From a virus, in the IMG/VR virus record IMGVR_UViG_3300046485_000051, positions 1 to 64,000 of that record: a stretch of 64,000 bases of DNA. One strand, given 5' to 3'. A program made the position numbers and the translations under genes. The notes under the pieces were generated by a model, which was given only the letters and a program-made list of their open reading frames with translations, was not told the DNA's origin and made no database searches. Shown in pieces: positions 20,909 to 43,491 of this stretch (its first letter is position 1; every line of letters begins with the position of its first letter).

Positions 20909-21294
20909 TGACTACTCCTAAAGAAGCTCAACCATTCCTTCCCCGCTGGCGGGCTGGGATAGGGCCACTCAGAGAAGAGGGCAGTGGTCTCTTGTCGGCG
21001 TGCTTGGTTCGCCAGAAGGACCTGCTCGACTATTTCGCCGCCCTAATGGGAAGTTTCACGCTGACAGTGAAGCCGCAAGCGGGGGAAATCTGGGCCGACA
21101 GCCTGCTGGTTCACAAAGGTGCTCCGGCAAAGCTTCTTTGGTTTCGCCGCATGGGCCAGGAGGTAGGCTCGCTCGATAGAAATTCTAGCGCTCCGCGTTG
21201 CTTGTTCTACGGGGTCGGGCTGGATGGCGCGGGAGGCCGGGTCGGCTACCGGATTGCGGAGGACGGGTCAGCGGAGTGGAGCACTGAGCTATGA
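20908..21294 (+). CDS. Hypothetical protein
   Basis: TAATG overlap with the upstream gene. ORF 20893..21294 trimmed to the ATG. Confidence 0.45.
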   Translation: MTTPKEAQPFLPRWRAGIGPLREEGSGLLSACLVRQKDLLDYFAALMGSFTLTVKPQAGEIWADSLLVHKGAPAKLLWFRRMGQEVGSLDRNSSAPRCLFYGVGLDGAGGRVGYRIAEDGSAEWSTEL

Positions 21295-24200: not shown

Positions 24201-24899
24201 GTGCCGGTTTGCCAGCAGACAACGCGCGAACTGTTTACCGAGCTTGACCGGTCGCGAGCAGGGGCTATCCGTCTGTTCCACAACGAGAGCCGCAAAGAAG
24301 TCTGGGTCAAGTATCCAACTCTCGGCGGGGGTTTCCGGGTCCTGGTCTGGAACTACGTCGAAGACTCGGCGACGTTCGACGACTACAAACCGGCAGTCGA
24401 GTTTACCGGGTTAGGCTTGGTGGACTGGCCGACGGACGACGCTACGGGCTCGGCGATTGAGCGGATTTGTGTGTTAGGCAACGCCGACGGCAACCTCCGG
24501 GTGCATGGGCGGGTGTATTCACGCGACGGTGCGGGTTATCTGGCCGCGTCTGAAACGATGGACTTTGACCTCGGCGAGCCCGACATTTGGAAGTATGTTG
24601 ACGTAGTGGTTTTGGGGCTCGAAGTGAAAGCGCCGGAGACCGCGTCGCGTTACATGGCGGTCCAAATAGGCACACGGGCGTCTTTGAGCGGCTACTCCAA
24701 TGCGCCTGACGAGGACGGCAGTATAACATGGACTGCACCGCAGCAGGTCCTTGTCAACGGGCACGCGCCGGTCCCGGTGAAGGTCAACCCAGGTGGGGCC
24801 GGCAGGTATCTGCGGGTCCGTTTTTCGAGCAGCGACCCCGGCGTCCAGTGGCGGGTCTCGTCGTTCGAGGTTCACTGCCGACCTGGAGGATACTACTAG
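21291..24899 (+). CDS. Large tail protein: N-terminal LamG, four Ig-like repeats, C-terminal nozzle/tail-tubular-B-like region
   Basis: LamG-like FTVSAWLKA..DWHFVALRVD..LDEVAVWARALSDAEV. Four ~108-aa repeats each ending SG[VST]G[IF] (about 22437-23735). C-terminal part resembles a beta-propeller. Confidence 0.7.
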   Translation: MSTIARTLYSNATLVGPKRQTLTSDAGVVMQPSGTLTSDASVVAFSGTSPYLSNSDTPLTQLHGTSFTVSAWLKASGTGAAFIFLSPAWYFLLSNGNLSFVVQSSVSGETMAATAPLPAFGDWHFVALRVDFLNSLISIYVDGTVAGSTPLIYAPDCSVSSFTDFFQVGSKDRVSMGDSLSDFSLDEVAVWARALSDAEVDSLWADGGGETYPFLGGAFNRVFQGRLINDPPKPLVLGSDRSLLAVTQLYDGVAEEFQAKLDLLFSGSRATEGYPWAADNFYDKILFAQHDNRAQYWTPPLPALAYDLPGLPSDDAAWDGVAAFAGHVLLWKEDRLKWSDRDDFTLYIPVAQTAISTALTLGQAFKQPAPGGSVAVTVTNPIAAVGSVNLSGDASFGSIPVGTTSQGVLTITNTGTAPVNVKNVQLPAGFSGTFSTPDGTNVVPPGQAFPMTVTFNPPLGAGGTFGGNAHIYSDATEGTWDFYISGVGISTAPHVVLSGVLDFGPVKADSHNYSLTSALIIQNTGNAPLHVTGLTMPASVFSGNWVGTVPAMSGSGVPGQQIVNVTFTPGKTVAEYSGVITVKVASSDHASGVLTIGASGSGISSFSKSAIFVTDMGTCQFGPRVAGSYTGTLRVYNPTSFAFQVIGIAHPDGFTTSYATPTVIPTFGHADFTVTYSAAAGVAAAGSLTVSVNHPAPGLNTCGVSGTGIASGSALTLSGNLNFGDTPVGGSAQASLTIKNSGSTTVNITSISFDTSLAGAVSGTLAGPIAPGVSQTVAIAFRPTTTSTYTGNLTVNTVETITGNVFPVSGTGFNLSQPLALVADQVVSLEDTRDGRTYYNFYTVVSMADTALTLTLMDLTGGTPAGLSIPADGRQFFTVDANEAGETRVVGAGMNGPIFQVVPQGDYAYIFKERSIQSVQYTGLGSGTFFVHNEVSNEGLIGREALCERGDAIVFLGHRELYIYQGGPSPVPVCQQTTRELFTELDRSRAGAIRLFHNESRKEVWVKYPTLGGGFRVLVWNYVEDSATFDDYKPAVEFTGLGLVDWPTDDATGSAIERICVLGNADGNLRVHGRVYSRDGAGYLAASETMDFDLGEPDIWKYVDVVVLGLEVKAPETASRYMAVQIGTRASLSGYSNAPDEDGSITWTAPQQVLVNGHAPVPVKVNPGGAGRYLRVRFSSSDPGVQWRVSSFEVHCRPGGYY

Positions 24900-24901
24900 G
24901 T

Positions 24902-26647
24902 ATGCCGACGCTTATCACGCTGCCGGCGTCACCCAAGCCCGCGCGGACGCTGGCTGAGCTTAGTCAGGCGATCACGGTCTGGACGCGCCAGGCGGAGCAG
25001 GCTATTCGTAAGGTCGCGTCGGTCGCTGATACCTCGCCCACCAGCCAGCTTGCCGGGCCGAGCCAGACGGGGCTGCTGTCGGCGTCGGATTGGCTGGTCT
25101 TCAACGCCAAGCAGGCGGCGGGGTCTTACCTGGTGGACGCTCCCAGCGACGGCGCAGTTTACGGGAGGCGGAATGGTGCTTGGTCGGCGGCGAGCGCGGG
25201 TGGCATAGCGGACGCGCCTAGTGACGGGACTTATTACAGCCGGAAGGATGCGGACTGGGCACATTTGCCGGCGGCGAGCGGGAGCACGGCGGGGCTGCTC
25301 TCGGCGGCGGATTGGAGCACCTTCACCGGGAAACAACCGGCGGGGTCCTACTTGACCGACGCGGCGAGCGATGGTAATAGCTACGCCCGGAAGAACGGGG
25401 CTTGGGCAGCGATCGGGACTGCGAGCGGCTCGGTAACCGGGCTGCTCTCTTCGTCCGACTGGACGACTTTCAACGGCAAGCAGGCCGCGCTGGTCGCAGC
25501 AGACTCGACGCATAACGGCTATCTAACCTCTGCTGATTGGGCCACGTTCAACAGTAAGCAGGCTGCCGGCAGCTACGTAACGGAGGCCGCTTCCGATGGC
25601 ACCTATTACACCCGGAAGGACGGGGTTTGGGCTCATCTGCCCAACGCGACAGGCTCGGTTATCGGTCTCTTATCCTCGACCGACTGGACGACGTTCAACA
25701 GCAAACAGGCGGCTTTGGTCCAGGCCGATGCAGCGCACGCCGGATACCTCTCTTCGACCGATTGGAGCACGTTTAATGGCAAGCAGGCTGCGCTGGTGGC
25801 GGCTGATGCGACGCACGCCGGTTACCTTACCTCGGCCGACTGGACGACTTTCAACAGCAAGCAGGCCGCCGGCAGTTATGTGACAGACGCCACCCACGAC
25901 GGGACCTATTACACGCTCAAGGATGGCGCGTGGGCTCACCTACCTTCTGCCTCAAGCTCGGTTACTGGTCTCTTGTCCTCGACGGACTGGGGCACCTTTA
26001 ACGGTAAGCAGGCGACGTTGGTAGCGGCCGACGCTACACACAGCGGCTATCTGACCTCTACGGACTGGGCAGCATTTAATGGGAAGCAGGCGACACTAGT
26101 AGCGGCAGATGCGACGTATAACGGTTACCTTACCTCTTCTGATTGGTCTACTTTTAACAACAAGCAGGCCACACTGGTCGTAGCCGACGCGACGCACAAC
26201 GGTTATCTGTCCTCGACCGATTGGTCTACCTTCTATAGCAAGCAGGCCGCCGGTTCCTATCTGACGGATGCCGCAGGGAGTATTAGCGCCGACAGTAAAT
26301 TTTACACCCGCAAGAACGGGGCTTGGTCCTCGCTACCTATTGCCGGAGCCTTCACTGCCGGGCTGCTCCAAGCCAGTGATTGGATAATTTTTAACGCTAA
26401 GACTGCCGCCAACCCAATTAATGGGGTTACCTATGTCCGCAAGGACGATGCCTGGATAGTCCCACCTACCGCGTCGGGCTCAGTTGCCGGGTTTCTCTCC
26501 GCCGCAGACTGGACGACGTTCAACAGCAAACAGGCCGCCGGCTCCTACCTCACAGACGCGGCGAGTGACGGGAAGACTTACGGCCGAAACAATGGCGCTT
26601 GGGCAGTGGTCGCTACTGATATTCTCAGTGTCCAGGTTTTCAGCTAA
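24902..26647 (+). CDS. Tail fibre built from two interleaved repeat motifs
   Basis: 13 copies of G[LY]L[ST]..DW.[TI]F[NTY].K[QT]-type motifs and 8 copies of DG..Y.RK.G.W. ATG follows 2 nt after the upstream stop. Confidence 0.7.
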   Translation: MPTLITLPASPKPARTLAELSQAITVWTRQAEQAIRKVASVADTSPTSQLAGPSQTGLLSASDWLVFNAKQAAGSYLVDAPSDGAVYGRRNGAWSAASAGGIADAPSDGTYYSRKDADWAHLPAASGSTAGLLSAADWSTFTGKQPAGSYLTDAASDGNSYARKNGAWAAIGTASGSVTGLLSSSDWTTFNGKQAALVAADSTHNGYLTSADWATFNSKQAAGSYVTEAASDGTYYTRKDGVWAHLPNATGSVIGLLSSTDWTTFNSKQAALVQADAAHAGYLSSTDWSTFNGKQAALVAADATHAGYLTSADWTTFNSKQAAGSYVTDATHDGTYYTLKDGAWAHLPSASSSVTGLLSSTDWGTFNGKQATLVAADATHSGYLTSTDWAAFNGKQATLVAADATYNGYLTSSDWSTFNNKQATLVVADATHNGYLSSTDWSTFYSKQAAGSYLTDAAGSISADSKFYTRKNGAWSSLPIAGAFTAGLLQASDWIIFNAKTAANPINGVTYVRKDDAWIVPPTASGSVAGFLSAADWTTFNSKQAAGSYLTDAASDGKTYGRNNGAWAVVATDILSVQVFS

Positions 26648-27927: not shown

Positions 27928-28104
27928 ATGGAAATCAAACTTTCCCTGTCTGAGACTGATGCGGAGAACTTGGCAAAGCTGTTAGACGCCGCTGTGCGCG
28001 CGGAGGGCCTGTCGGCAGCAGAGGCGGCCTTACCCATTTTTCGCCGCTTGCGGATGGCAGCGGATGAAGCCAGAAAGCAGGAGACTGATGCCGTTCGTTC
28101 TTGA
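27928..28104 (+). CDS. Hypothetical 58-aa protein (probably leaderless)
   Basis: ORF 27898..28104 trimmed to the ATG that fits the promoter geometry. Confidence 0.4.
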   Translation: MEIKLSLSETDAENLAKLLDAAVRAEGLSAAEAALPIFRRLRMAADEARKQETDAVRS

Positions 28105-28522
28105 GACCGCCTGGCAGGAAATCTCGAAGGGCGACGCTGGCGCGGCGGAGTTTTGCCGCACGTTCTACGCCTGGACGCAGAGCTTCGATGACTTGATAGA
28201 CCGCGACAAGTCTCTGCGGGTGGACGAGGCTGTTTTGGCTCAGGTCGCGCTGCTGGCCAACGTGGCGACCAGCTCGTTTGTTCAGGCGAACCGGGACACC
28301 TTGTTGCCGGTTATCTCAGTCAGCGCCCTGGCCTACATTGCCTCGGAGGACCGCAAGAACAACCCCGACGTAGTCGAGCGGATGACGGCCCAAGTGCTCA
28401 AATCCGAATATGTCAACGTCTTCCTGACCGTGGCGCTTATTGTTGGCGGCTGGGAGCACGCGCTCACCATGAGCCGGCGCTACCGGGAATACAACTTCGA
28501 CGTGGAGCCGGTTAAGGTCTGA
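28088..28522 (+). CDS. Hypothetical protein (start 28064 or 28088)
   Basis: 152-aa ORF that overlaps the upstream gene. Confidence 0.45.
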   Translation: MPFVLETAWQEISKGDAGAAEFCRTFYAWTQSFDDLIDRDKSLRVDEAVLAQVALLANVATSSFVQANRDTLLPVISVSALAYIASEDRKNNPDVVERMTAQVLKSEYVNVFLTVALIVGGWEHALTMSRRYREYNFDVEPVKV

Positions 28523-28532
28523 CGGTTTGACC

Positions 28533-28561
28533 TTGTCAAGCAGAGGGGTTTCGGGTAGTTT
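28533..28561 (+). promoter_or_regulatory. Promoter-like TTGTCA-N17-TAGTTT (GGGTAGTTTGGG box)
   Basis: -10 at 28556-28561. An SD-like GTGAGGA precedes ATG 28576. Confidence 0.35.
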
Positions 28562-28575
28562 GGGGGTGAGGATTT

Positions 28576-29292
28576 ATGGGATTCTGCGACAACAAACAAA
28601 GCGGGAACACGCAATACCAATACCAGGACCCCCTTGGCCCGACTTCTATTGGGCCGGGCGGGCATCCCGTGTATTCTGCGACTGGCGCGCCCCAGATGCG
28701 CAGCCAGGTATTCAACTACCTGAGCGGCGCAATGCCACAGATGGCGCAGGCCGGCCAGGATTACGCGGCGGCGTTGAAGGGCGCGGCCTCGAATGCCGGC
28801 TGGGGCCAGGAGGCCAAGCTCGCGCAGGACACGCTGGCGGGCAAGTATCTGAATGGGAGCCCGCAGCTTGACCGAGCCCTGGCGACTAACCGCGCGGCGG
28901 CCCAGGCAGACGCGGCCAACCAGACGGCGCGTATCCGGAGCGGCTACGGAAAGAACGGGATGGGCTTCTCGACGGCGAGCCAGCAGGCGGACCAGTCTAA
29001 TCGGGCTTCGGCAAACGCCCAGGCGAACCAGACCAACACCCAGGCGTATTTGCAGAACTACCTGGCGGAGCGGGGCAACCAGAACAACGCCGGCAGCATG
29101 CTCGCGCAGGCGGTCGGGACTCCGTTGAATTACATGGGCGGCGTTTCCGGCGCATACGCGAGCCCGCTGGGCCAAATCGGCAACATTCTGAGCGCTCTCA
29201 GCAGCGGCGGCCAGTCGATTGCGACCAACTCGCACGCGATTGACTCACCCTCGGCGGGGTCGAGCGTGCTGTCGGGGATTGGTTCGCTGTAA
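28576..29292 (+). CDS. Internal virion protein candidate (Gln/Asn/Ala-rich)
   Basis: Position after the tail genes and low-complexity Q/N/A composition typical of podoviral internal proteins. Confidence 0.5.
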   Translation: MGFCDNKQSGNTQYQYQDPLGPTSIGPGGHPVYSATGAPQMRSQVFNYLSGAMPQMAQAGQDYAAALKGAASNAGWGQEAKLAQDTLAGKYLNGSPQLDRALATNRAAAQADAANQTARIRSGYGKNGMGFSTASQQADQSNRASANAQANQTNTQAYLQNYLAERGNQNNAGSMLAQAVGTPLNYMGGVSGAYASPLGQIGNILSALSSGGQSIATNSHAIDSPSAGSSVLSGIGSL

Positions 29293-29305
29293 CCAGCTTT
29301 GACTT

Positions 29306-29626
29306 ATGGCACTGAACTATTTGGGGAACGACTACGGGGACGAGGCTGGCGGCGGGCAAGGATTTCCTGGCGGCGGGAATGACTATGGCGGCGAGCTTGC
29401 TGGGCCTGCGGGAGCGTCTCCTCTAGCTCAGCCTGGCTTCTTGGAGAATTTGAAGGGGGCGCTACTACGTGCTTCGGCGATGGGCGGCGGGGCGGCCGGT
29501 ATGGCCGCTGCTGTGAGCCCGGGCTTTTACAACGGGGTCTCGAAGACGAAGGGTGGCCAGAATGGCGGCAGCGGACTGTTGTCTAAGTTTGGCTCTTCTG
29601 CGGCTGGTGGGTCAGGCTCCTTCTAA
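29306..29626 (+). CDS. Gly-rich small virion protein candidate
   Basis: 106 aa with GGG runs. Confidence 0.5.
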   Translation: MALNYLGNDYGDEAGGGQGFPGGGNDYGGELAGPAGASPLAQPGFLENLKGALLRASAMGGGAAGMAAAVSPGFYNGVSKTKGGQNGGSGLLSKFGSSAAGGSGSF

Positions 29627-29635
29627 GGTTCTACT

Positions 29636-31108
29636 ATGAGTGCAGCAAGCGACAATGCTCTTTCGGCCAGTCAAGCCCGCCAGGGGCTCCTGGGTCTCGG
29701 CGGCTTTATTCAAGGTCTGCGCGAGTGGCAGGTCCAGAAGCCTTTGCTCCAAGCACAGGCGGCGCAGATGAGCGCGCAGCCGGGCCTGGTGCAGGCGCAG
29801 ACGGATGTAGCCAAAGCGAACGCCGCCGCGTTGAAGCAGCAGACCGATCAGCAGAAGCAACTTTTTGAAGCGTGGGGCCTGAAGGCCGCACAGGCGCGCG
29901 CTAACGCTCTCAGTGGCCTTGGCTTTGGTTCTGGCGATGGGAGCGGGCCGTCGCTCTTTACCCCCGGGGACAAGAGCGTCAGTCCTTTTGGGCCACCGGT
30001 CACGGAGCCAGGCGCGCCTTCCGCCGGCTTCGGGGGTGCTCCTAATTTCCTGGACGTTTCTCGCGGGCTGCCGCCGACTATCTCGGCCCCAGGCTCGACG
30101 AAGCCTTTCCAGTTGGCGGGCCGGTCGGGAATCGCCACCACCCTAAACCCGGCTGGCGAAATCGAATTTGGACCCGGCTCTCTCAGTCCCGAGTTGAAGT
30201 CTCAGATTGACAACGACCCGGCGACAACCTGGTCGCAGGCGGACCCGATGACGCGCAAGGCAATCGAAGGTTATCTGAAGTCCAACGCCGCAGCGCTCGG
30301 TAACCGTGAGTCAGCGGCGAAGCTGGTGGACGCAAAGCGCAGCGCCTCCTACGGCAACACTACGGAGCAGAAGGAGCATCGAGACTTTGCTCTCAATGCG
30401 TCGCTGCTGTCGCACCGGCTCAACCAATATGACGACGTAGTCGCGAAGCACGGCAACTGGAACAACACACTCGGCACGCGCGACCCGGAGGCGACGGCGA
30501 AGTTGTCTTCGCTGCCGATGGATATTTCGGAGAACTGGAATAAGGTGTCCAACCCGGGCGCGACGCTCCGCGAGGGCCTTGTCCACCTGGGCAAGGAGAA
30601 TCAAATACCCGCTGGTTTCTGGACGCTAAGCAACACGACCCGCGCGGGAATCAAGCAGACCAAGTCAGTCCTGGCCGAGTATGTCCGGGCCTACGAGAAC
30701 CTGGCAGCCACACGGGCACCGATTGAAGGGCTCTCGGCAGACGTGCGTAAGGCTGTCGGGCCGACAGAAGCGTCCAAGCGGTTTGAACAGCAGTTTGGCG
30801 TTCCCGTCCCGACGGACGAGGGGGCCTATCAGCCTGAGCCGGCGGCCGCTAAGCCGGCACCGAAGGGCGCGGGGGACAGCACACAGCCCGGGACTTCCGG
30901 CACCGCTGGCCCCGAGGCTGCGGTCGAGGTCAAGACTCAGCAACAATATGAAAGCCTGGCCCCGGGCACCTGGTATAAAGACAGCACTGGCGCGGTAAAG
31001 CAGAAGTCCGGGGCTCGCCCGACCGTGAACACAGGAAGCACAGCCGGCGCTCCTAAAGGGCCGTCTTTGCCGGCCTTGACGCTCAGCCCAGTATTGAAGC
31101 CTCGCTAG
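29636..31108 (+). CDS. Internal virion protein candidate
   Basis: 490 aa with a coiled-coil Q/A-rich N-terminus, directly ahead of the giant ORF. Confidence 0.55.
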   Translation: MSAASDNALSASQARQGLLGLGGFIQGLREWQVQKPLLQAQAAQMSAQPGLVQAQTDVAKANAAALKQQTDQQKQLFEAWGLKAAQARANALSGLGFGSGDGSGPSLFTPGDKSVSPFGPPVTEPGAPSAGFGGAPNFLDVSRGLPPTISAPGSTKPFQLAGRSGIATTLNPAGEIEFGPGSLSPELKSQIDNDPATTWSQADPMTRKAIEGYLKSNAAALGNRESAAKLVDAKRSASYGNTTEQKEHRDFALNASLLSHRLNQYDDVVAKHGNWNNTLGTRDPEATAKLSSLPMDISENWNKVSNPGATLREGLVHLGKENQIPAGFWTLSNTTRAGIKQTKSVLAEYVRAYENLAATRAPIEGLSADVRKAVGPTEASKRFEQQFGVPVPTDEGAYQPEPAAAKPAPKGAGDSTQPGTSGTAGPEAAVEVKTQQQYESLAPGTWYKDSTGAVKQKSGARPTVNTGSTAGAPKGPSLPALTLSPVLKPR

Positions 31109-31493: not shown

Positions 31494-34400
31494 ATGGCTG
31501 CTGATTTCATTGGCCCCGACACCGACCTCGCCGCCCCTCAGACTCCGGGGAAACCCGAAGGCTTCGTAGGGCCTGACTCCGACACTACCGCCTCTTTTGT
31601 GGGGCCGAAGTCTGATGCGGCTCAGCCCGAGGATATTCGTGGGCGGATGCAGGACCCAAAGTTCTGGCCGTCGAATGACCAGTGGCGCGCGCTTTACGAG
31701 AGCGAGAAGAACAAGCCTTCCGACCGCCTGGGCGCGGTAGCGCGGGGCTTGAAGGGCATCGCGGCATTGCCCGGCCAGGCGTGGGACGAAGCTTCGGCCG
31801 AGGCCGCTCAGGGCAAGCCAGGGCACTTTCTGCAACGCGAGGCGGCGGTCGTTCCTGAAGCACTGGGCCAACTTGCGCGGATGGTTATAGACCCGGTCGC
31901 GGATTTCGTGCTGGCCCCTCCTCACTCCACGAACGAAGAGCAGGCTTTTCAGAACTGGAAAGAGGAACAGGGCAACAAGCTGGCTCGGTCTCGGATGCCG
32001 GCCTCGGCTCCGTGGACGCGGACCTGGCGGGAACCGGTCGAGGGTGAGGACCCCGAACAGGCCGCCGTGCAGCCGTTCCAAGCGGCCTCGACTATCGCCA
32101 GCCTTGGTGTGCCTATCGGGGCGGCTACCGGGCCGGCGCTGAAGTATCTGGGCGCGGCGGGGCCGGCGGCTACTGCCGGCAAGACTCTCGTGCAGTCCGC
32201 TATTGAGGGCGCGGCGGGGCCGGCGACTAAGGCGTTGGGCGAGCGGGCTGCCGGCGCTGTCGGCGCTGCGGTCGAGAACACGGGCAAGCTGGCTAAGGTC
32301 GTAGGCGGGGCTCCGCGCAAACTAATCAACAAGGCCGCCGAGGCTATCACCGGCCCGGAAATGGCAAAGCCGCTGGCTGGCGGTATCGCGGGCGCACTGC
32401 TGCACAATCCTGTTGCCCAGGGCTTGGCAACTGCCGAAGGTGTTGGCACAGGCGTCGCGAAGGCCGGCGAGCTTATCCAGAAGGTGGCGGGAGCCTCTGC
32501 GGCTGGGCCTGGCCGCTTTGCTAACCTCCTCAAGAACCCGGCGACTCCTACCTGGATACGCGGGACAATCGGCTCATTGACAGCCGGCGCTGCGGGCATA
32601 GTCGTGCCTGCCGCCAAGTCGATAGTGAAAGGTGCAGTCGGTGGTGCTGCTGTCGGTGCCGGACTGAACGCTGCGAACGGTGAAGACCCCTGGGAAGGCG
32701 CGGGCGCGGGCCTGGCCTTGGGCGGAGGTTTCGGATTGGCCGGTGCCGGCGAGGTCAGGAAGGGCGACGTATTCAAGAACCGCGTCGCCGGGCTCACCGA
32801 GCTTATGCGGTCCAACCTGGACGCAGGTGTCACTCCTGAGACTCTGGCGAAGGTGCCGGATGCGGCGGCGCTGGCGGCGTCAGACCTGCCCTATCTGGGA
32901 ATCAAGGATGCGCAAGGGCGAGACCTCAAGGTCCGTTTCGCCGACGAAAAGACAGACACGTCTCTGGCCGGCCAGGATGGCTACTACGACCGGGGCCAGC
33001 ATACCATTGTGATGAACGCCGACGCGCTCCAGCGCAGCCCGGCGGCCTGGGGCTCGCTGTTCCACGAGGTTCTTCATCCGTTGATGGAGAGCGAGGTTGC
33101 CAACCGTCCCGAGTTAAAGGGCCAAGTGGACGCGGCGCTGGCGAAGAACGGCCAGACGCTCGACGAGGCGAAGCGCGCCTACGCTTCTGCGCACTTGGCG
33201 GAGCAACTTAAAGGCAGCACGCCCGAGGCGGCCAAGGCTACGATAGACCAATGGGTCACGGCGCAGGACCAAGCTTCCGCCGTGAACAACAAGGGCGATG
33301 CAAACCATTGGGTTTACTCTGAACTGTTGGCCGAGGCTGGCCGCTGTGCGCTGGGTGGTCTCGGCGACATAGTCAGGCCCGAGGGCGCAATCAATAGGGC
33401 GCTGGCCCCGTCGGTGAGCAAGATTCTTGGGAACGTCTTAGAGCGCATGGGCATAGGCTCCCGGCCGGGGCCGAAGCCCGGCACAGTCATTCCTGGATTT
33501 CAGAACGTGGCGGAGGACCCGTCGCTTCGCAAGGCCGTCTATAGCCTTCTGAGGAATCAACGGGATTTTGCGCCGGGTATCTCGAAGGGGGCTCCGCAGG
33601 AAGTCCGGCTCACGCCGCAGGACGTGGGTGGGGCGAAGCTTCCAGTCAGCGGCCAGACGGCGCAGGACTATCTGCGCGAGACTAGGCCCGGCTCGGGCCG
33701 GTATGAAGTGCGCCCGAAGGCCGAGCAACGAAAGGCCGAGCGAGACCGGAAGGCGGTCATGGAGCGCATATTTCCGACGACGGGCACGGCGCTGCCGGCG
33801 AACGATGCCAGCGACGCGATGGCGCTGCGCACGCGCGCAGACGGCTCCGCAGAGCGGCGCGGCAGGGTGCTGGGCGATGCTTTCTATCAGGACCCGAACG
33901 TCAGCGACTCGATGAAGCAGACGGCGGCAATCTTTGAGGCGATGATTAACAAGGGTGGGGCCTTCGAGGGCTGGTATAACAAAACCCACAAGAACGGCAT
34001 CGCCAGCCTGAAGGACCTCGTCTCTGAGTATAAGCGCGGCGTCCGGCCTTACGAGTTTTTCATGGACAAGCACGGGCACCTTCTGGTGCGCAGCTTCGAC
34101 ATGGGTCACGCGGAGGACGTGAAGCTCGGCGAGTGGGCACAACGCACTGGGCCGGTGAGCCTGGAGCTTTGGGGCAACGACCCGGCAGCGGCGAAGGTTG
34201 ACCTGGTGACTTACACCGACAACCTGGCGTCCGGCCGGCCGGGTGCCGATAGCATCGGCGAGAAGAAACGCGACGTATTGAACGCGCTGGTCTTCGGCGA
34301 CAACGCCGCGAACCGAGACGCCAACCCACTGCGGAAGAACCTCAAGAGCGCGAAGGCCAGGGAAGGTTTGGTCCGGTCTTACCGGATTGACCGGGTCGAG

Positions 34401-37400
34401 ACGGCGAAGCCGAGCCCGAGTGACTTGCACACTCCGGACTATCGCCGGGGCGTCTTCAATTTCTCCCCATCAGCCGACCCGCGCGCTGTCAAGCTGGCTG
34501 CCGTCATGGACGAATCGACGGGCAAGATTTATGAAGGCCCGTATCATGCTGCCGCTGCCGAAAAGTATTGGGAGACGAAGTTTCCCGGTGACGAGACCAA
34601 CGCTCTGCGGGCCTGGAATAGCGTGCCCGAGTTGAAAGAGGGCTTCATCACTAACAGCGGCGAGTTTCTGGACCGCGACCAGGCATTTCAGCGAGCCACG
34701 GAGCTAAATCAGTATAAGCCGACGGCGCGCGACGACGGACAGCTTGAGTCCACCCGGTTCAATCACCAGCGGGAACTACAGGCCGCCGGCTTCGCGCCAG
34801 ACGTGAGATATTCCCCGGCAGCGGAGGATAAGGTTGCCCAGGTCGGCCAGAACATTGTAGACCAGGCCGGCGAAGAGCGGCGCTTCTCTCCGGCCACGAA
34901 GTTTGTTGACAACCAGCCGTCTGATGTTAATAATCGCGGCGTGAAGAAATTGCCGCACGCCGTCGGGGAAGGCTCCGTCCGAGTTATCCACCTGAGCAGC
35001 CGGGGAGACCTGAAGACCGTCAATCCCCGTTACTTCGGCAAAGGGGCGGCCAACACGACCGACCTACGGGGCGGCAACAAATCCTTTTTCTTCGTCGAGG
35101 GCTCGCCCCTGGGCGCGGATGCCAACATCTTCAGCCAGGGCGGCTACAACGCCTTCACGGCGGAGCTAGACGGCTCGAAGCTTTACGACTTGCGCGCCGG
35201 CAAGCCGGACCCGCTGGGCTACTATAGCGGGGTAAACCGGGAGAAGGCCGACGACCTGGTCCGCCGGAAAGGCTACCACGGCATTCTGGTCGAGACCGGC
35301 AAGGGTGACGGGCGCAACGTCGTCCTGATGTATCGCGCGGTCCCGGTCAAGCCGGCGGGCAACTTCTATGGCGACGTTGCCCGGCCGCTGGCGACCCAAG
35401 CGAAGTCTGGGCTGACGTTCAAGGACTTCTTCTCGCAGGCAACGAAGGGCGCGGTCGGCAAATCTACGGTGCCCTGGGAGCCGATAATGGACCTGGGCGG
35501 AGACAAGGCATTCCGCGCCGAGCAGGCCAAGCACACCGGCAACTTCGACGAGCATATTGCGAAGTCCATCCCGGGCTTCCGCGAGACCCAGGTCCGCACG
35601 GGCTCCGCGATTGTCAAGACGTTTGGCAAGGGCGCGGACATGCTCGACATTGCCGCCAGCGAGGGCAGTTACGCGAAGACGATTTCTGCACGCTCGAACG
35701 GCAGTATCAAGACAGTGTCGCTCGACCCAAATCCGGACATGGCGCAATTCTTTGCCAAGCAGAGCAAGGTCCCCGGAGCGAACTACGACACGTCCGCCTT
35801 CTTGCAGGGCTTCGAGGACAACGGCAAAGTCGTGCCGGCCTATAACCCGACGAAGCGGTTCGACGTGGTTCACGAGTCGATGGGCTTCCAGTTTATCAGC
35901 CCCGACCGAGAGCCTCAGTTTGCTGAGGCCAAGCGGTTGATGAAGCCGGACGGCGTGTTCCTGACCGAGGAGAAGGTCCGTAATGGTGCCTGGGCGGCGA
36001 ATGAGGCTAAGAAGGATGCCGGCTACAAGGCCAAATTTTTTACGGGCGAGGAGCTTGCGAAAAAGAATGAGGTCGTCGGCTTCCAGCAGTCTGAGCAGGA
36101 GACCCAGAAGGTCGGGATGCTCGACAACATGGTTACCGACGTAGACCTCGAAGCCGCCCTGGCTAAGAACTTCAAGCACGTTGTTCAATATTGGGACTCG
36201 GGGAATTTCAGGGGCTACGCGGCGAGCGACAACCCGGCGGTCCTGGCGAAGCTTGTAAAAAACATGGGCGACCTGCGGACTGACTATAGCACGGTCGAGA
36301 CTCCGCGCACGGTCGGCGAAAAGCCCGAAGGAAAGCAGTTCTCCCCAGCGCACGCAGACTACAAGGGCGAGGGCGAAGGCGAAGCCGCGCGGCCCGAGCA
36401 GTTCCACGCGGTCGGCTCGTTCGACAAGCTGGGCAAACTGACGGCGGCGCTTAACCCTTCGGGCGGCTACGCCAGCGAGAACGAGAACGCTGGAGGCCGC
36501 GCTCCCTGGCGCTATGACGCCGGCACCAAAGCGGTCTCCTGGCCGAGCGGATTGCCTGCGACCTCGAAGCGCAACGCTGTGGCTGCCTGGTTGAAGGAAC
36601 GCGGCTACCCGGTCGAGACCCATACCAGGGCTGCGACTGATTTTGCCTACAGCCCGAGCGCTGCGGCCGGAAAGTTCCAGGATGCTATCGGCTCCATCGC
36701 GGAAGACGGCGAGGTCAAGGGCGTCACCAACTCAGGCGGCGATTTCTTGAGCCACGCCGCTAACGCAGTCACGGGGGACAACTCCTGGCGCTACGACGCG
36801 GCCAGCAAGACTGTGGGCTGGTGGGCCGGCCTGCCCAACGCTAAGACTCAGGACATAGTCAAGGCATGGCTGGAAAAGAAGGGTTTCGCGGTGGAGCACC
36901 AGAAGGCGGTCGGCTACAACGCCGGCTCCCATTTTGCTTTCAGCCCGGCGGCTCCGGTCTTCTATTCGCAACTCGAAAAGACGGTCGATGCGAAGTTCTC
37001 CGGCAAGGAAATGCCGGCGGCGCAACTGGCGGCGCTCCTGCGCAATCCGCAGAACGGCGTCAAGGCCGAGGAGTTGAAATGGTCCGGGCTGGACGACTAT
37101 TTGAAGTCCAAAGGCCGTGTGACGAAGGCAGAGGTCCAGGAGTTTCTGAAGGCCAACGCCGTGCAGGTCAAGGAAGTGCAGAAGGGCACTAACCCCGAGC
37201 ATGAAGCGGCCGAGAAGGCTGCGGAAGACATTCGCGTCGAAATGGACCGCAAGTATGGTCCTAACTGGTATTATGACGACCGGTTCATCAACAGCCCCGA
37301 CCGCGCGCGGTTGCGCGAGGCTGACGAGCGCTTGCACGACGCCCAAACGATGGGCAAGACTGACACCAAGTTCGAGAACTACCAACTCCCCGGCGGCGAG

Positions 37401-39731
37401 AACTACCGGGAGCTTCTGTTTACGCTGCCAGAACAGGGAAAGTTGGTTTACACTAAGGAGAATGTCATCCCGGAAGAAGGACCGGAAACTAATAGCCGGT
37501 ATAATCATCTGTTTTGGTTTTTCCGCACGCCGGACAACGTGCTGCAAATCTCAAAGTCAAAGCACCCAAGCCAGGAAGCCGCGCTTGATTATATCCTGCG
37601 CGAGAAGCAGCCGGCGACGCGCTACGAGCACAATTTCAAGTCCCCGCACTGGGACGAGCCGAACGTCCTGGCGCACACGCGCCTGAATGACCGGACGGAC
37701 AGCGCTGGCAAGCCCGGCCTCTTCTGTGAGGAAATTCAGAGCGACTGGCACCAGAAGGGGCGGAAGGAAGGATACCGTGTTAATCTGACTCCGGAGCAGC
37801 AGGAGCTAGATGCACTAGTCAAACGGATTAGCTTAAACGGGTGGGAGAGTTTGACCCGCGAAGAACGGGCAAGAAAACACGAGCTTGTGAGGAGCGGGGT
37901 AGGCGAGTCTTTGATGGGGAAGAGCGGCAACGAAGGCGTCCCGGATGCTCCTTTCAAAGGCACCTGGCAGGAGCTTGTCTTCCGCAGGCTCGTTCGCATG
38001 GCCGCCGAGCAGGGCAAGGACTGGCTGGGCTGGACGACCGGCGACCAGCAGGCCGAGCGCTATGACTTGAGCAAGCAGGTTGACGCTGTGGACGTTCACT
38101 TGATGCCCAATGATGACAACCGGGGCAAGTATCTGGTGGAAGCCATACAGGGTCGCAACGCTGTTGTCAGCGAGCGCTGCGAAGACCTTGCTGCTGTCGA
38201 GCGGCTCATCGGCAAGGACCTCGCCAAGCAAGTCGCCGAGCAGAAAGAGCCCTTCCATAAATACACCGGGACCGACCTCAAGGTCGGCGGCGAGGGCATG
38301 AAAGGCTTCTACGACAAGATGCTCGTGGACTACGCCAACAAGTTCGGCAAGAAGTTCGGGGCCAAGGTTGAGGACCGCAACATTCCTTCAACCTCGCACG
38401 GCCAGAGTTACTACGCCGAGCAAAACCCCGAGGGGAATTGGACCGTTTACGAGAACACATCTAGCGGACCAGCCGCCTACGATGACGCACCCACTAAGCA
38501 AGCTGCGGACAGGATTTTGAAGAAACTCCTCGGAACGCAGACCATAATTCACTCTCTGCCCATCACGCCGGAAATGAAGGCCAGCGTTGTCGGCCAGGGC
38601 GTGCAGATGTTCTCCCCTGCTGCCGAGAAGGCTCCTGAACAGGGCCGGCTGGACCTGGGCCTCCCCTCGTTTTCAAACGTGGGCGGTATGACGAAGGCCC
38701 AGATAGTCGAGCGCTTCCCCGAAGCCGTGAAGGCCGGCGCGCGAGACGAAAAGCACGATTACAACATCGTCGGCGCTCCGCTGGTGAAAGGGCTCCCTCA
38801 CGACCAGGCCGTCAAGACCTACGCGGATAAGCTCGAAGGCGAAGCCAAGAAGTGGCTGGACCATCCGGCCTTCCAGTCGGGGCTCCGCTGGTATTCCGAA
38901 TTTACGCCGCTGCTCAAGAAGCACTTCGGCAAGGACGCGAACCTCATGGCCGAGCTTCTGGCGGCGACCAGCAAGCGGACCAATCCGGCGGTAAACTTTG
39001 GTTTCGCTCAGGACGCGCTGGAGCTTAACCGGCGCGGGCACTACAAGAAGCTCGTGGCGAAGTTCGAGCAGGGGGTGAAGATGGCTGAGAACGGGACGCT
39101 GGAGCGGTGGTATAAAACCCGGCTCACAAAGGGCCTGGTTGACAACCCGCCGAAGGTAGCCGGCCCGGGCACCTGGCTGGGCCACTGGGTTAAGGCCCAT
39201 GACCTCTTTCCTCGCCAGAGCAACGGGAAGCTCTTCGGCATGTCGTCGGGGGCGGTGTTGCAAGTGCTGGCCCGCCGCTGGCTGGAGTTGAACAAGGGGC
39301 CGAAGGTGGCGAACTTCGTCAAGAACCTGCTGGGCACAGGCCACGAGGCGACCGTTGACGTGTGGTCGGCGCGCGACCTGCGCCGGCTGGGCTACGAGGG
39401 TCAGCCCGGGCATGAGAAGTGGCGCATTCTGCCGATGAATGAGACTGGTGTCAGTGACGCGGATTTTACCTTCTCGCAGAAGGTATTCCGCCAGGCCGCA
39501 ACTCAGATGGGTTTGAAGCCGGACGCTCTCCAGGGTGGTATGTGGTTCGCGGAGAAGTCGCGCTGGGAGGATAACGGCTGGGCTCCGCTGGACCTGGGCG
39601 ACTACCGCAAGGAAATCAAGAAGACCGGGCTGCTGCGCGCCGGAGTCGGCCAGCGGCTCGCGACTCACGCTCAGGAAGTGAAATCCAACCGGGCCGCGCA
39701 CCCCGAGCAAGCTTTGTTATTTAACCGTTGA
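31494..39731 (+). CDS. 2745-aa polyvalent internal-virion/ejection protein (zincin HExxH, class I SAM methyltransferase and unassigned modules)
   Basis: Uninterrupted 8238-nt ORF. HEVLH at 33063-33077. MTase motifs FDEHIAKSIPGF, DMLDIAASEGSY, RFDVVHESMGFQFI and LMKPDGVFL at about 35520-36010. Ala/Gly-rich N-terminal third. Confidence 0.85.
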   Translation: MAADFIGPDTDLAAPQTPGKPEGFVGPDSDTTASFVGPKSDAAQPEDIRGRMQDPKFWPSNDQWRALYESEKNKPSDRLGAVARGLKGIAALPGQAWDEASAEAAQGKPGHFLQREAAVVPEALGQLARMVIDPVADFVLAPPHSTNEEQAFQNWKEEQGNKLARSRMPASAPWTRTWREPVEGEDPEQAAVQPFQAASTIASLGVPIGAATGPALKYLGAAGPAATAGKTLVQSAIEGAAGPATKALGERAAGAVGAAVENTGKLAKVVGGAPRKLINKAAEAITGPEMAKPLAGGIAGALLHNPVAQGLATAEGVGTGVAKAGELIQKVAGASAAGPGRFANLLKNPATPTWIRGTIGSLTAGAAGIVVPAAKSIVKGAVGGAAVGAGLNAANGEDPWEGAGAGLALGGGFGLAGAGEVRKGDVFKNRVAGLTELMRSNLDAGVTPETLAKVPDAAALAASDLPYLGIKDAQGRDLKVRFADEKTDTSLAGQDGYYDRGQHTIVMNADALQRSPAAWGSLFHEVLHPLMESEVANRPELKGQVDAALAKNGQTLDEAKRAYASAHLAEQLKGSTPEAAKATIDQWVTAQDQASAVNNKGDANHWVYSELLAEAGRCALGGLGDIVRPEGAINRALAPSVSKILGNVLERMGIGSRPGPKPGTVIPGFQNVAEDPSLRKAVYSLLRNQRDFAPGISKGAPQEVRLTPQDVGGAKLPVSGQTAQDYLRETRPGSGRYEVRPKAEQRKAERDRKAVMERIFPTTGTALPANDASDAMALRTRADGSAERRGRVLGDAFYQDPNVSDSMKQTAAIFEAMINKGGAFEGWYNKTHKNGIASLKDLVSEYKRGVRPYEFFMDKHGHLLVRSFDMGHAEDVKLGEWAQRTGPVSLELWGNDPAAAKVDLVTYTDNLASGRPGADSIGEKKRDVLNALVFGDNAANRDANPLRKNLKSAKAREGLVRSYRIDRVETAKPSPSDLHTPDYRRGVFNFSPSADPRAVKLAAVMDESTGKIYEGPYHAAAAEKYWETKFPGDETNALRAWNSVPELKEGFITNSGEFLDRDQAFQRATELNQYKPTARDDGQLESTRFNHQRELQAAGFAPDVRYSPAAEDKVAQVGQNIVDQAGEERRFSPATKFVDNQPSDVNNRGVKKLPHAVGEGSVRVIHLSSRGDLKTVNPRYFGKGAANTTDLRGGNKSFFFVEGSPLGADANIFSQGGYNAFTAELDGSKLYDLRAGKPDPLGYYSGVNREKADDLVRRKGYHGILVETGKGDGRNVVLMYRAVPVKPAGNFYGDVARPLATQAKSGLTFKDFFSQATKGAVGKSTVPWEPIMDLGGDKAFRAEQAKHTGNFDEHIAKSIPGFRETQVRTGSAIVKTFGKGADMLDIAASEGSYAKTISARSNGSIKTVSLDPNPDMAQFFAKQSKVPGANYDTSAFLQGFEDNGKVVPAYNPTKRFDVVHESMGFQFISPDREPQFAEAKRLMKPDGVFLTEEKVRNGAWAANEAKKDAGYKAKFFTGEELAKKNEVVGFQQSEQETQKVGMLDNMVTDVDLEAALAKNFKHVVQYWDSGNFRGYAASDNPAVLAKLVKNMGDLRTDYSTVETPRTVGEKPEGKQFSPAHADYKGEGEGEAARPEQFHAVGSFDKLGKLTAALNPSGGYASENENAGGRAPWRYDAGTKAVSWPSGLPATSKRNAVAAWLKERGYPVETHTRAATDFAYSPSAAAGKFQDAIGSIAEDGEVKGVTNSGGDFLSHAANAVTGDNSWRYDAASKTVGWWAGLPNAKTQDIVKAWLEKKGFAVEHQKAVGYNAGSHFAFSPAAPVFYSQLEKTVDAKFSGKEMPAAQLAALLRNPQNGVKAEELKWSGLDDYLKSKGRVTKAEVQEFLKANAVQVKEVQKGTNPEHEAAEKAAEDIRVEMDRKYGPNWYYDDRFINSPDRARLREADERLHDAQTMGKTDTKFENYQLPGGENYRELLFTLPEQGKLVYTKENVIPEEGPETNSRYNHLFWFFRTPDNVLQISKSKHPSQEAALDYILREKQPATRYEHNFKSPHWDEPNVLAHTRLNDRTDSAGKPGLFCEEIQSDWHQKGRKEGYRVNLTPEQQELDALVKRISLNGWESLTREERARKHELVRSGVGESLMGKSGNEGVPDAPFKGTWQELVFRRLVRMAAEQGKDWLGWTTGDQQAERYDLSKQVDAVDVHLMPNDDNRGKYLVEAIQGRNAVVSERCEDLAAVERLIGKDLAKQVAEQKEPFHKYTGTDLKVGGEGMKGFYDKMLVDYANKFGKKFGAKVEDRNIPSTSHGQSYYAEQNPEGNWTVYENTSSGPAAYDDAPTKQAADRILKKLLGTQTIIHSLPITPEMKASVVGQGVQMFSPAAEKAPEQGRLDLGLPSFSNVGGMTKAQIVERFPEAVKAGARDEKHDYNIVGAPLVKGLPHDQAVKTYADKLEGEAKKWLDHPAFQSGLRWYSEFTPLLKKHFGKDANLMAELLAATSKRTNPAVNFGFAQDALELNRRGHYKKLVAKFEQGVKMAENGTLERWYKTRLTKGLVDNPPKVAGPGTWLGHWVKAHDLFPRQSNGKLFGMSSGAVLQVLARRWLELNKGPKVANFVKNLLGTGHEATVDVWSARDLRRLGYEGQPGHEKWRILPMNETGVSDADFTFSQKVFRQAATQMGLKPDALQGGMWFAEKSRWEDNGWAPLDLGDYRKEIKKTGLLRAGVGQRLATHAQEVKSNRAAHPEQALLFNR

Positions 39732-42738: not shown

Positions 42739-43491
42739 CTAGCCGGTCAAAAGGCCGTTTATTATACGGTCGTCCGTGCCCCTCTTGTATTTCTGAAACC
42801 AGAGAAGTGTGAAGGCGTGCCAAGCCACTTGCGCAAGGTGGTGATTACCTAACTCGTCTCGCTCCTCGCCGCGCCACCAGGCCCACAGATGGCGATTGAG
42901 CGCCCCAAAAGACAACCGCCACGAGTAGCCTTTAGCCCAGTTATTGTCAGCGTATTTCTTCGCCCCGCGCCCATAGACCTCCGCCAGTTCCCACAACGGC
43001 TCGCCAGGAATCAGGTCAAAGCGCTGGAGCTTCTGCCCCTTCTGTCCGCCGGTTGTCGGGTCGGTAACACGGACCTCGCCTGATGCTGTAGCAGGGGGCT
43101 CTTGCCAGGTCTCAAACTTCACTCGGTCAGTCTCGTAATTTGCGACAGGAGCAAGCCGTGTTGCCCCTTGCCAGTCCAGAATAGATTTTTCTGCCTTAGC
43201 CCCGGTGGACCGTTCCCAACCGTCGAGCGCGACATAGTAGGCGCATGTCCGGAGCGCCTCAATATCGCGCGTAATTATGTCGTCTAGGTTCAGGCCCTCC
43301 GCGATGGAGTTCCAGTCGAAGTCGTGCGGTAGCAAGAGTGCGTCGAAGCCGTTTTCCCGGTCCAGTTGGGCAGGGTTGACAGGCTCCAGCTCCACCCGGC
43401 GCAGTTCTTCTGCCATGCTGTCGAACGCCGGAAAGTTATATAGGGACTTGCCCCGCATGGGGCCAAGGATATAAACGCGGGTATTACTCAT
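42739..43491 (-). CDS. Fusion of a DUF4406 (nucleoside 2-deoxyribosyltransferase-like) domain and a phage all-alpha NTP pyrophosphohydrolase-like domain
   Basis: N-terminal VYILGPMRGKSLYNFPAF..VNPA..DGWERSTGAKAE. C-terminal GGQKGQKLQRFDLIP..GAKKYADNNWAKG..LNRHLWAWWRGEERDELGNHHLAQVAWH. Confidence 0.55.
   Translation of the reverse strand: MSNTRVYILGPMRGKSLYNFPAFDSMAEELRRVELEPVNPAQLDRENGFDALLLPHDFDWNSIAEGLNLDDIITRDIEALRTCAYYVALDGWERSTGAKAEKSILDWQGATRLAPVANYETDRVKFETWQEPPATASGEVRVTDPTTGGQKGQKLQRFDLIPGEPLWELAEVYGRGAKKYADNNWAKGYSWRLSFGALNRHLWAWWRGEERDELGNHHLAQVAWHAFTLLWFQKYKRGTDDRIINGLLTG

Follow-up and report, generated by a model that had tools for sequence, protein, structure and literature searches.

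A giant phage protein punctuated by a recurrent motif

The 64,000-nucleotide window analysed here (positions 1 to 64,000 of the IMG/VR virus record IMGVR_UViG_3300046485_000051) is, judged by its gene content, a nearly complete tailed-phage genome. Its last plus-strand open reading frame (ORF) after the virion structural and tail genes encodes a giant polyvalent, multi-module protein, in which the short motif [FY]-S-P-[AS] recurs. The motif is real and strongly non-random, is deeply conserved, marks the junctions between modules and is under selection at the protein level. The ORF and the motif copies are located as follows:

31494-39731, plus strand: giant ORF, 2,745 amino acids (ORF list and translation)
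34458-34475, plus strand: copy 1 at junction 1 (J1), N989-F-S-P-S-A, with FSPSA at 34461-34475; family-wide end of the N-terminal region
34809-34823, plus strand: copy 2, YSPAA, residue 1106; separated from copy 3 by a 25-residue spacer
34884-34898, plus strand: copy 3, FSPAT, residue 1131; precedes module M3 (residues ~1142-1302)
36339-36353, plus strand: copy 4, FSPAH, residue 1616; start of WRYDA module 1
36648-36662, plus strand: copy 5, YSPSA, residue 1719; start of WRYDA module 2
36939-36953, plus strand: copy 6, FSPAA, residue 1816; start of a widespread module of ~557 amino acids
38610-38624, plus strand: copy 7, FSPAA, residue 2373; joins the 557-residue module to the C-terminal DUF7178 module

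An earlier note on this DNA, made from the letters alone, had reported seven copies at these positions, and both the coordinates and the residue numbers (990, 1106, 1131, 1616, 1719, 1816 and 2373) are exact. The giant protein has no [FY]SP tripeptide other than these seven. The note's rough estimate that well under one match is expected agrees with the composition of the protein, from which 0.089 copies are expected against the seven observed. Among 20,000 residue shuffles the maximum was three copies, reached in three shuffles, and at least four occurred in none. The other 44 long ORFs of the window chosen as likely genes (14,237 amino acids) hold three [FY]SP tripeptides against 4.2 expected, and none of them has [FY]SP[AS] in its coding frame. 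A chance cluster in a long protein rich in Ala, Ser and Pro, which the degeneracy of a pattern only four residues long would favour, is a negligible prospect: it is refuted by the expected count, by the shuffles, and by the roughly 10-fold enrichment in 64 diverged relatives and the label permutation described below.

The copies are not repeats of one DNA sequence. Serine is encoded by TCC, TCT and AGC and proline by CCA, CCG and CCT, and because the codons differ between copies, selection has acted at the protein level. A DNA-level repeat or recombination signal is ruled out by the same differences.

Module boundaries coincide with the motif

The N-terminal region (N-region) comprises about the first 990 residues, contains an IrrE-like HExxH zincin and a conserved C-terminal domain, and ends at the first motif copy. 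Two of the modules that follow it are defined by sequence matches, given here as high-scoring segment pairs (HSPs) from BLAST in query (q) residues:

34461-34808, plus strand: module M1, residues 990-1105, starting with FSPSADPRAVK; HSPs q989-1098 and q976-1102 to the giant proteins P0039, P0004 and P0030
35400-36338, plus strand: S-adenosylmethionine-dependent methyltransferase module, residues ~1303-1615; Pfam Methyltransf_11 and phrog_4752; HSPs q1302-1618

The block between copies 3 and 4 (residues 1131-1615) is bounded by two motif copies, as had been claimed for the methyltransferase-containing part of the protein, and holds two modules (~1142-1302 and 1302-1615). Two WRYDA modules come next, module 1 at residues 1616-1718 and module 2 at residues 1719-1815. 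They had been described as duplicates that each begin at a motif copy, and they are a true tandem duplication (BLASTP E=3e-16, 39% identity). The 557-residue module extends from 1816 to 2372; it matches about 20 other giant proteins in HSPs with starts at q1811-1823 and ends at q2373-2380. The C-terminal DUF7178 module occupies residues 2373-2745. Pfam and PHROGs recognise only the methyltransferase (~1380-1570) and DUF7178 (2595-2686) in the giant protein.

Comparison with other giant metagenomic proteins gave BLAST segments whose ends lie on motifs, namely q43-994, q976-1102, q1152-1302, q1302-1618, q1811/1816-2373/2380 and q2408-2744. The modules are shared piecemeal with proteins that carry ART-PolyVal, GNAT, InPase and LPD38 domains. 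In the relative P0002, FSP stands on both sides of the GNAT and of the ART-PolyVal domain (residues 1866, 2001 and 2164), and copy 3 is kept in position in P0002 (residue 1289) and P0044 (residue 1084). All-against-all BLAST, with HSPs taken wholly downstream of residue 1150 so that the N-region was excluded, showed that HSP starts peak on the aromatic residue (10.7 times background) and HSP ends on the proline (13.7 times).

Conservation of the motif across the N-region family

An exhaustive HMMER search of a library clustered at 50% identity, with residues 43-995 as query, identified 218 representatives (E<1e-3). Of the 150 alignments listed, all but a few stop at query positions 950-953, equivalent to residues 992-995, that is, at the first motif. 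The N-region, which Pfam does not cover, is shared by a family of giant phage proteins that had not been described before. About 100 uncultured relatives carry the motif at module joints. No N-region was found in cultured phages by tblastn against 50,697 genomes, where megablast and tblastn gave only two distant module matches, and a single scan of representative bacterial genomes returned no N-region relative.

The family consensus at J1 is [DN]-[YW]-x-K-x-x-x-N-[LFYM]-x-P, with the variants LSP (43), FSP (25), RMP (19), LMP (6) and LTP (5). Asn989 and Pro992 are invariant in an alignment of 25 sequences. The cargo part of the 64 proteins with Ser at J1 contains 212 [FY]SP tripeptides against 20.1 expected (~10-fold), the N-region of the same proteins 25 against 10.9 expected. 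The median spacing of [FY]SP in these proteins is 191 amino acids, the size of a domain, and a logo of 313 sites reads [Q 21%, R 14%]-[F 51%, L 24%, Y 21%]-S-P-[E/A/D]-[A/T]. The motif goes with the N-region: a recurrent [FY]xP was found in all eight full-length giant proteins that have the C-terminal domain of the N-region (p<=7e-3), and a comparable motif in about two of the 21 that do not (P0004 and P0008). Conservation at module junctions in homologous giant proteins, which the earlier note had proposed as a check, is thus borne out by the common end at J1, the [FY]SP enrichment and the HSP boundaries. The motif is not a general feature of polyvalent ejection proteins; this is ruled out by gp47 of phage phi24B and most of P0007-P0029, which do not contain it.

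Some relatives depart from the common pattern. P0158, a single and anecdotal case, has HEVGE in place of HExxH; its J1 reads N-L-R-R with the proline gone, and the recurrent motif is absent. P0129, P0146, P0160, P0165 and P0180 end 2-5 residues past J1 (for example ...N-FSP-DLPQ), and are either cargo-less carriers or assembly breaks at the point where variable cargo begins.

P0040 was considered as a stand-alone module starting at a motif and was rejected, as its locus L002 appears to hold a frameshifted giant ORF in which the 'MVNKL-FSP' start is internal to a longer frame. At L002 (5634-12856) gene calling divides the giant gene into four ORFs (1453, 604, 178 and 163 amino acids), and other frames are open across the ORF junctions inspected; the split is probably due to frameshifts, from assembly errors or gene decay. 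A separate observation concerns P0022, a metagenomic polyvalent protein with no homology to the N-region, which has a recurrent motif of its own, [YLF]-S-L-R, in seven copies (e.g. NPDIRY-SLR and LPKF-SLR). Junctions may be punctuated with other consensus sequences in further families of polyvalent proteins.

The middle residue varies in concert within each lineage

The most informative result is the concerted, lineage-specific variation of the motif. Its middle residue differs between lineages (S, M, R, Q or L) and is uniform across the joints within one protein. In proteins with Ser at J1, [LFYM]SP occurs downstream 263 times against 45 expected and [LFYM]MP 10 times against 14 expected; with Met at J1, [LFYM]MP occurs 19 times against 3.1 expected. 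When the J1 labels were permuted, the observed concordance was reached in none of 10,000 trials. At the level of single proteins, P0149 and P0161 have [LFYM]MP five to six times each, P0186 has LRP at J1 and four downstream [LFYM]RP, P0019 has AR-FQP four times, P0004 has FQP four times, P0014 has Q-FMP three times, and P0030 has FLPG five times and FLPS once. The motif classes follow the clades of a neighbour-joining tree, so that the switches between classes that are independent of each other are few.

The joint at the end of the 557-residue module allows orthologous positions to be compared. The module ends with '...ITPEM..V..G.PLF' in every protein, with Phe as its conserved last residue, and this PLF is followed by SP in P0001 (a protein identical to the product of the giant ORF, on a 65,420-nt JGI contig) and P0002, by MP in P0014, P0149 and P0161, by QP in P0019, and by LP in P0024. 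In each case the residue after PLF matches the other joints of the same protein, while giant proteins that have no N-region carry unrelated residues there. The aromatic residue can therefore belong to the module, and the x-Pro is set by the protein that hosts it. The best account of this variation is one reader that co-evolves with its sites.

These data bear on the proposal that the motif has no trans-acting reader, and is either a structural boundary element (a helix N-cap, a hinge or a cis-proline) or a by-product of module shuffling. Ser-Pro-x-x is a common helix N-cap, the proline is followed by E/A/D and then A/T, and the modules are clearly shuffled among proteins. Set against this, S, M, R, Q and L cannot all cap a helix, yet each is uniform within its lineage; the serine codons differ (TCN and AGC), and nine nucleotides are too short for homology-driven recombination; and homologous modules occur in other protein families without the motif. 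The variation of codons and residues thus makes a structural role or an origin by DNA shuffling very unlikely. A helix N-cap or a proline-directed phosphorylation site as such was ruled out by the M, R, Q and L variants that are uniform within lineages, and a motif intrinsic to the fold of the modules by the presence of the same modules without Ser-Pro in other giant proteins.

The N-terminal region carries a candidate protease

The two domains recognised in the N-region are positioned as follows:

32787-33362, plus strand: zincin domain, residues 432-623; HEVLH (residues 524-528) at 33063-33077
33474-34418, plus strand: C-terminal domain of the N-region, of unknown fold, residues 661-975; hidden Markov model match of 1.9e-100, common to all motif-bearing relatives

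The likely third zinc ligand is Glu610 (33321-33323). His524, Glu525, His528 and Glu610 are invariant in the family alignments, including the alignment of 25 sequences, and the pattern HExxH..Exxx[ED] can be read in 135 of the 158 family domains aligned. In the C-terminal domain Asp903, Tyr907, Asn910, Asn944 and Arg967 are invariant. A profile of the zincin region finds IrrE (3dte) as its best match in the PDB, a weak one (E=0.0037) over about 60 residues with the core 'YYD..I.VN......HE..HAL'; a sequence search of the PDB with the N-region returned no match.

Characterised enzymes of the IrrE family cut in a site-specific manner. IrrE cleaves DdrO at L106|R107 and ImmA cleaves ImmR at F95|M96, both in loops (PMC6868357), and CapP, whose activator is single-stranded DNA, cleaves CapH at F82|R83 (PMC13228613). 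By analogy with these sites, which all follow Phe or Leu, the scissile bond in the giant protein is predicted to be Phe/Tyr|Ser-Pro.

Two further features of the N-region lie upstream of the zincin. Three tandem F-[IV]-G-P-[DK]-[ST]-D repeats (F5, F24 and F35; residues 5-41, 31506-31616, plus strand) form a linear motif separate from the junction motif. Analogous F-x(1,2)-P repeats are present in 2-4 copies within the first ~70 residues of relatives, in the forms FDPxxAGA (P0003, P0005 and P0006), FPGTPLD (P0042), LGLSP (P0048) and FDPF (P0034). They may act as a signal for packaging or for docking to the portal, apart from the junction motif. A Gly/Ala-rich stretch (32100-32760, residues ~200-420) is modelled as low-confidence helices, with values below 50 in the predicted local distance difference test (pLDDT), in which Gly380, Gly384, Gly406 and Gly410 are wholly or almost wholly invariant. 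Ejection and tape-measure proteins have glycine-zipper or membrane-active segments of similar appearance.

Predicted structure around the motif

AlphaFold2 models were obtained for residues 1-1015 and 976-1830 from shallow alignments of 25 and 21 sequences, respectively. The first model contains confident folds at ~430-620, corresponding to the zincin (pLDDT 77-96), and at ~660-975 (pLDDT 70-94). J1 follows the latter directly, in a segment (residues 977-999) with pLDDT below 50 despite its invariant residues. The second model shows a confident fold for M1 at ~986-1075 (pLDDT 76-95), with the motif at 990 on its N-terminal edge, and for the methyltransferase at ~1306-1612 (pLDDT >90). The motif at 1616 lies 4-5 residues past the end of the confident methyltransferase fold at pLDDT below 50, and those at 1106, 1131, 1719 and 1816 lie in stretches with pLDDT below 50. 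None of the six modelled copies (990-1816) is therefore found in a confidently folded core, in line with the expectation that the motifs fall in linkers.

A motif placed in this way could also be a non-proteolytic docking element. It would be bound in the linkers by a postulated phage partner (the portal, a scaffold, another ejection protein or the conserved domain of the N-region itself) or by a host factor, and would serve to package, organise or translocate the protein. This is the main rival of proteolytic processing and explains most of the same data. The invariant Asn989 and Pro992 within a segment predicted to be disordered are a hallmark of binding motifs; the motif is repeated within a protein, with some copies in closely spaced pairs shortly behind J1; concerted variation between lineages fits co-evolution with any single partner; J1 may persist in members with little or no cargo, and stands alone in the RMP clade; and the separate N-terminal F-x-P repeats suggest a use of such motifs in docking within the family. 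Docking leaves the intact zincin without a role in the motif pattern, however. Moreover, blocks of similarity both start and end on the motif, a tight abutment typical of polyprotein sites, and P0158 has lost its zinc ligand together with the proline of J1. Weighing both sides, we regard docking as a serious but rather unlikely explanation.

Genomic setting of the giant gene

The genes that precede the giant ORF are arranged as follows:

9292-10833, plus strand: terminase
11577-13712, plus strand: portal
17365-18642, plus strand: major capsid protein
19192-19845, plus strand: SU10-type adaptor
21291-26647, plus strand: tail proteins
28064-31108, plus strand: three ORFs of 152, 238 and 490 amino acids, directly 5' of the giant gene; no match to PHROGs or Pfam

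RuvC, DNA polymerase A, a helicase, an exonuclease and an integrase are encoded downstream. The arrangement of virion genes and giant gene is syntenic in locus L001, and the relative P0006 sits on a syntenic phage contig. Upstream of the giant gene, L001 has ORFs of 139, 232 and 485 amino acids, in the same order and of similar size, with an extra 128-residue ORF before the last. Phage phi24B shows a like order of small, small, ~420-490 residues and giant. Podovirus ejection proteins (P22 gp7/gp20/gp16 and T7 gp14-16) are likewise encoded behind the tail genes, by successive ORFs of small, medium and large size. The three ORFs are probably other ejection or internal virion proteins, and, going by gene position, the giant protein may be a virion component that enters the host along with the DNA. 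No homology to known ejection proteins was found for the N-region or the upstream ORFs in PHROGs and Pfam, nor for the N-region by the tblastn search of phage genomes.

The setting also bears on whether the motifs could be cleaved by another protease, either a host enzyme acting after ejection or a phage protein acting in trans. The evidence from boundaries, linkers and conservation applies equally to such an enzyme. In bacteria, the N-degron residues are L, F, Y and W. They coincide with the first residue of the motif, termed position 0 (F 51%, L 24%, Y 21%), and a cut before the aromatic would create N-degrons. A host protease leaves it unexplained that all joints of one protein share a middle residue which differs from one phage to a related one, and this lineage-specific variation makes such an enzyme unlikely. 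As for a phage enzyme, neither a prohead protease nor any other protease is recognisable by PHROGs and Pfam in the structural module, and the motif occurs in no other virion ORF and tracks the zincin-bearing N-region. Cleavage by a protease other than the zincin is accordingly judged unlikely. A general prohead-protease site was rejected as a candidate, with no protease gene recognisable and no enrichment in other virion ORFs.

Elsewhere in the window, a 250-residue ORF (42739-43491, minus strand) resembles a nucleoside 2-deoxyribosyltransferase at its N-terminus and a dATP/dGTP pyrophosphohydrolase at its C-terminus (phrog_355 and phrog_801), and a Stealth-CR2-like ORF (15949-16668, plus strand), well below the Pfam gathering threshold, lies between the portal and capsid genes. 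Taken together, the two hint at nucleotide or DNA modification functions.

A proposed polyprotein with its candidate protease in cis

We tentatively favour a reading in which the giant protein is a phage "polyprotein" and the motifs are its processing sites, specific to each lineage, where the zincin of the same chain would cut directly behind the aromatic residue; we consider this close to, though somewhat short of, an even prospect. Proteolysis of any kind at the motifs appears mildly probable. The zincin leads as the candidate enzyme because the motif co-occurs with the zincin-bearing N-region, its catalytic residues do not vary, the middle residue of the motif shifts jointly within each lineage, and the zincin resembles IrrE, which like ImmA and CapP cuts behind Phe or Leu.

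The proposed organisation would be as follows. A conserved carrier region of ~990 residues, consisting of glycine-rich helices, the IrrE/ImmA-like HExxH zincin and the conserved domain of unknown fold, would be followed by a string of interchangeable cargo modules: the methyltransferase, the two WRYDA modules, the widespread 557-residue module and DUF7178, with ART and GNAT modules instead or in addition in relatives. Each joint would present an exposed linker with the consensus [QR]-[FY(L)]-S-P-[EAD]-[AT] as a site-specific cleavage site for the zincin of the same polypeptide. Cleavage at Phe/Tyr|Ser-Pro would turn the modules into individual proteins, either while still in the capsid or once ejected into the host. 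In its boldest form, which we hold with distinctly more reserve, uncultured podovirus-like tailed phages would deliver a true polyprotein whose IrrE-like-zincin carrier cuts itself at [FY]|x-P and releases a customisable cocktail of effector enzymes; protease and sites would have co-diversified into S, M, R, Q and L classes, with each protease reading its own junctions.

Several observations weigh against cleavage by the zincin. The assignment of the protease would follow from co-occurrence and from the IrrE resemblance, which is weak (E=0.0037 over ~60 residues): Pfam peptidase models gave no match to the giant protein at E<0.1, the N-region alignment gave a single weak match to DUF6782 in Pfam, and Foldseek returned nothing significant for the N-region model, the top matches being WYL-domain proteins at E ~0.5. 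The RMP clade has an intact HExxH and J1 with no downstream copies. If the proteins that end just past J1 terminate at true stops, J1 persists where there is no cargo, an indication that it does more than release cargo. Some joints are unmarked, such as that at ~1302 inside the methyltransferase block, which bears no motif here and FSP in P0002, P0005, P0006 and P0044. The middle residues tolerated (S, M, R, Q, L, A and T) are a wide range for a single protease subsite. Low pLDDT at 1106, 1131, 1719 and 1816 also arises from shallow alignments, and is weak evidence for disorder; a disordered binding motif would equally sit at module boundaries and co-evolve with its partner. Finally, the family is known from uncultured phages alone, and cleavage of its members is predicted from sequence. 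That cleavage takes place, which protease performs it, at which bond and when are all put forward as predictions.

The earlier note had suggested that the motif marks proteolytic processing sites, with the HEVLH zincin in cis or a host protease met after ejection as possible enzymes, and had named a docking or packaging signal as the alternative. The positional part of that proposal stands, since the motif punctuates modules, is conserved at the junctions of homologues and lies outside confident cores; the functional part is the leading hypothesis and is not proven.

Phages and conjugative elements commonly encode giant polyvalent proteins, which are regarded as arsenals injected to counter host defences. 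Since 2017 their division into working parts, and the sites at which it would occur, have been a matter of prediction, and the motif now supplies candidate sites, a predicted bond for the cut and, within one and the same chain, a candidate protease. With ~200 diverged sequences whose site consensus shifts in step, the processing hypothesis is directly testable. If it is true, it provides a rule for parsing module boundaries in these proteins, extends polyprotein logic to double-stranded DNA phages, and possibly offers naturally orthogonal pairs of site-specific protease and site. If the motif is a docking signal instead, it shows how a protein of ~300 kDa is organised in the capsid, a question that has been raised for phi24B gp47.

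Comparison with known systems

The giant protein resembles polyvalent proteins in that it is a giant multi-domain protein encoded beside virion genes, and joins a zincin, perhaps of the polyvalent-protein MPTase type, to unrelated effector modules (the methyltransferase here; ART-PolyVal, GNAT, InPase and LPD domains in relatives). It differs in the junction motif, which is restricted to the N-region family and is absent from most other polyvalent proteins. Iyer et al. 2017 (PMC5512222) predict zincin autoprocessing for polyvalent proteins and cite processing of P1 DdrB; a keyword search of that paper found no mention of a cleavage-site or junction motif. Literature searches likewise gave no description of the motif, in agreement with the earlier statement that it has no described equivalent.

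P1 DdrB/DarB and phi24B gp47 are giant proteins that are packaged with the DNA. DdrB is proteolytically processed and carries a zincin (PMC5512222). The gp47 protein of phi24B (2,811 amino acids) was found in virions and has been put forward as an ejection protein, and its gene order is like that of the giant ORF. Neither P1 DdrB/DarB nor gp47 has detectable homology to the N-region, however, and gp47 has no recurrent junction motif. As a side observation, the phi24B decoration esterase gp84 is reported to be cut in two interdomain linkers, both with SSP (bioRxiv 10.64898/2026.04.10.717836). The SSP tripeptides were confirmed at residues 57 and 414 of gp84 (L003, phi24B, HM208303, 3315-5252), and phi24B also packages a zincin-bearing polyvalent protein; a relation of the gp84 linkers to the junction motif is speculative.

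The M78/COG2856 zincins (IrrE, ImmA and CapP) have HExxH and a downstream Glu, preceded by a strand of the form Y-D-P-x...I-x-x-N. The HExxH..E pattern is seen in the giant protein too, and the weak IrrE alignment spans the strand and the HExxH. The known enzymes are site-specific and cut loops after Phe or Leu, and the motif of the giant proteins has F, Y or L at position 0. Like CapP, IrrE is a DNA-activated enzyme. By contrast, they cut one site in a separate repressor, whereas up to 18 sites in cis are predicted here; the similarity is marginal, and there is neither a GAF domain nor a repressor partner.

Polymorphic toxins have boundary motifs that occur once per protein, VENN in CdiA and PxxxxDPxGL in Rhs proteins. 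J1 likewise parts a conserved carrier from variable cargo, but the motif described here recurs between modules and varies in concert between lineages.

RNA-virus polyproteins have a short consensus at every domain junction that is lineage-specific and is read by an embedded protease, such as picornavirus 3C or potyvirus NIa. A recurrent junction consensus, sites in linkers and a consensus that co-varies with lineage are found in the giant protein as well. The differences are that it belongs to a double-stranded DNA tailed phage, that its modules are putative virion or ejection cargo and not a replicase, and that the candidate protease is a zincin in place of a Cys or Ser protease, with cleavage predicted at the joints.

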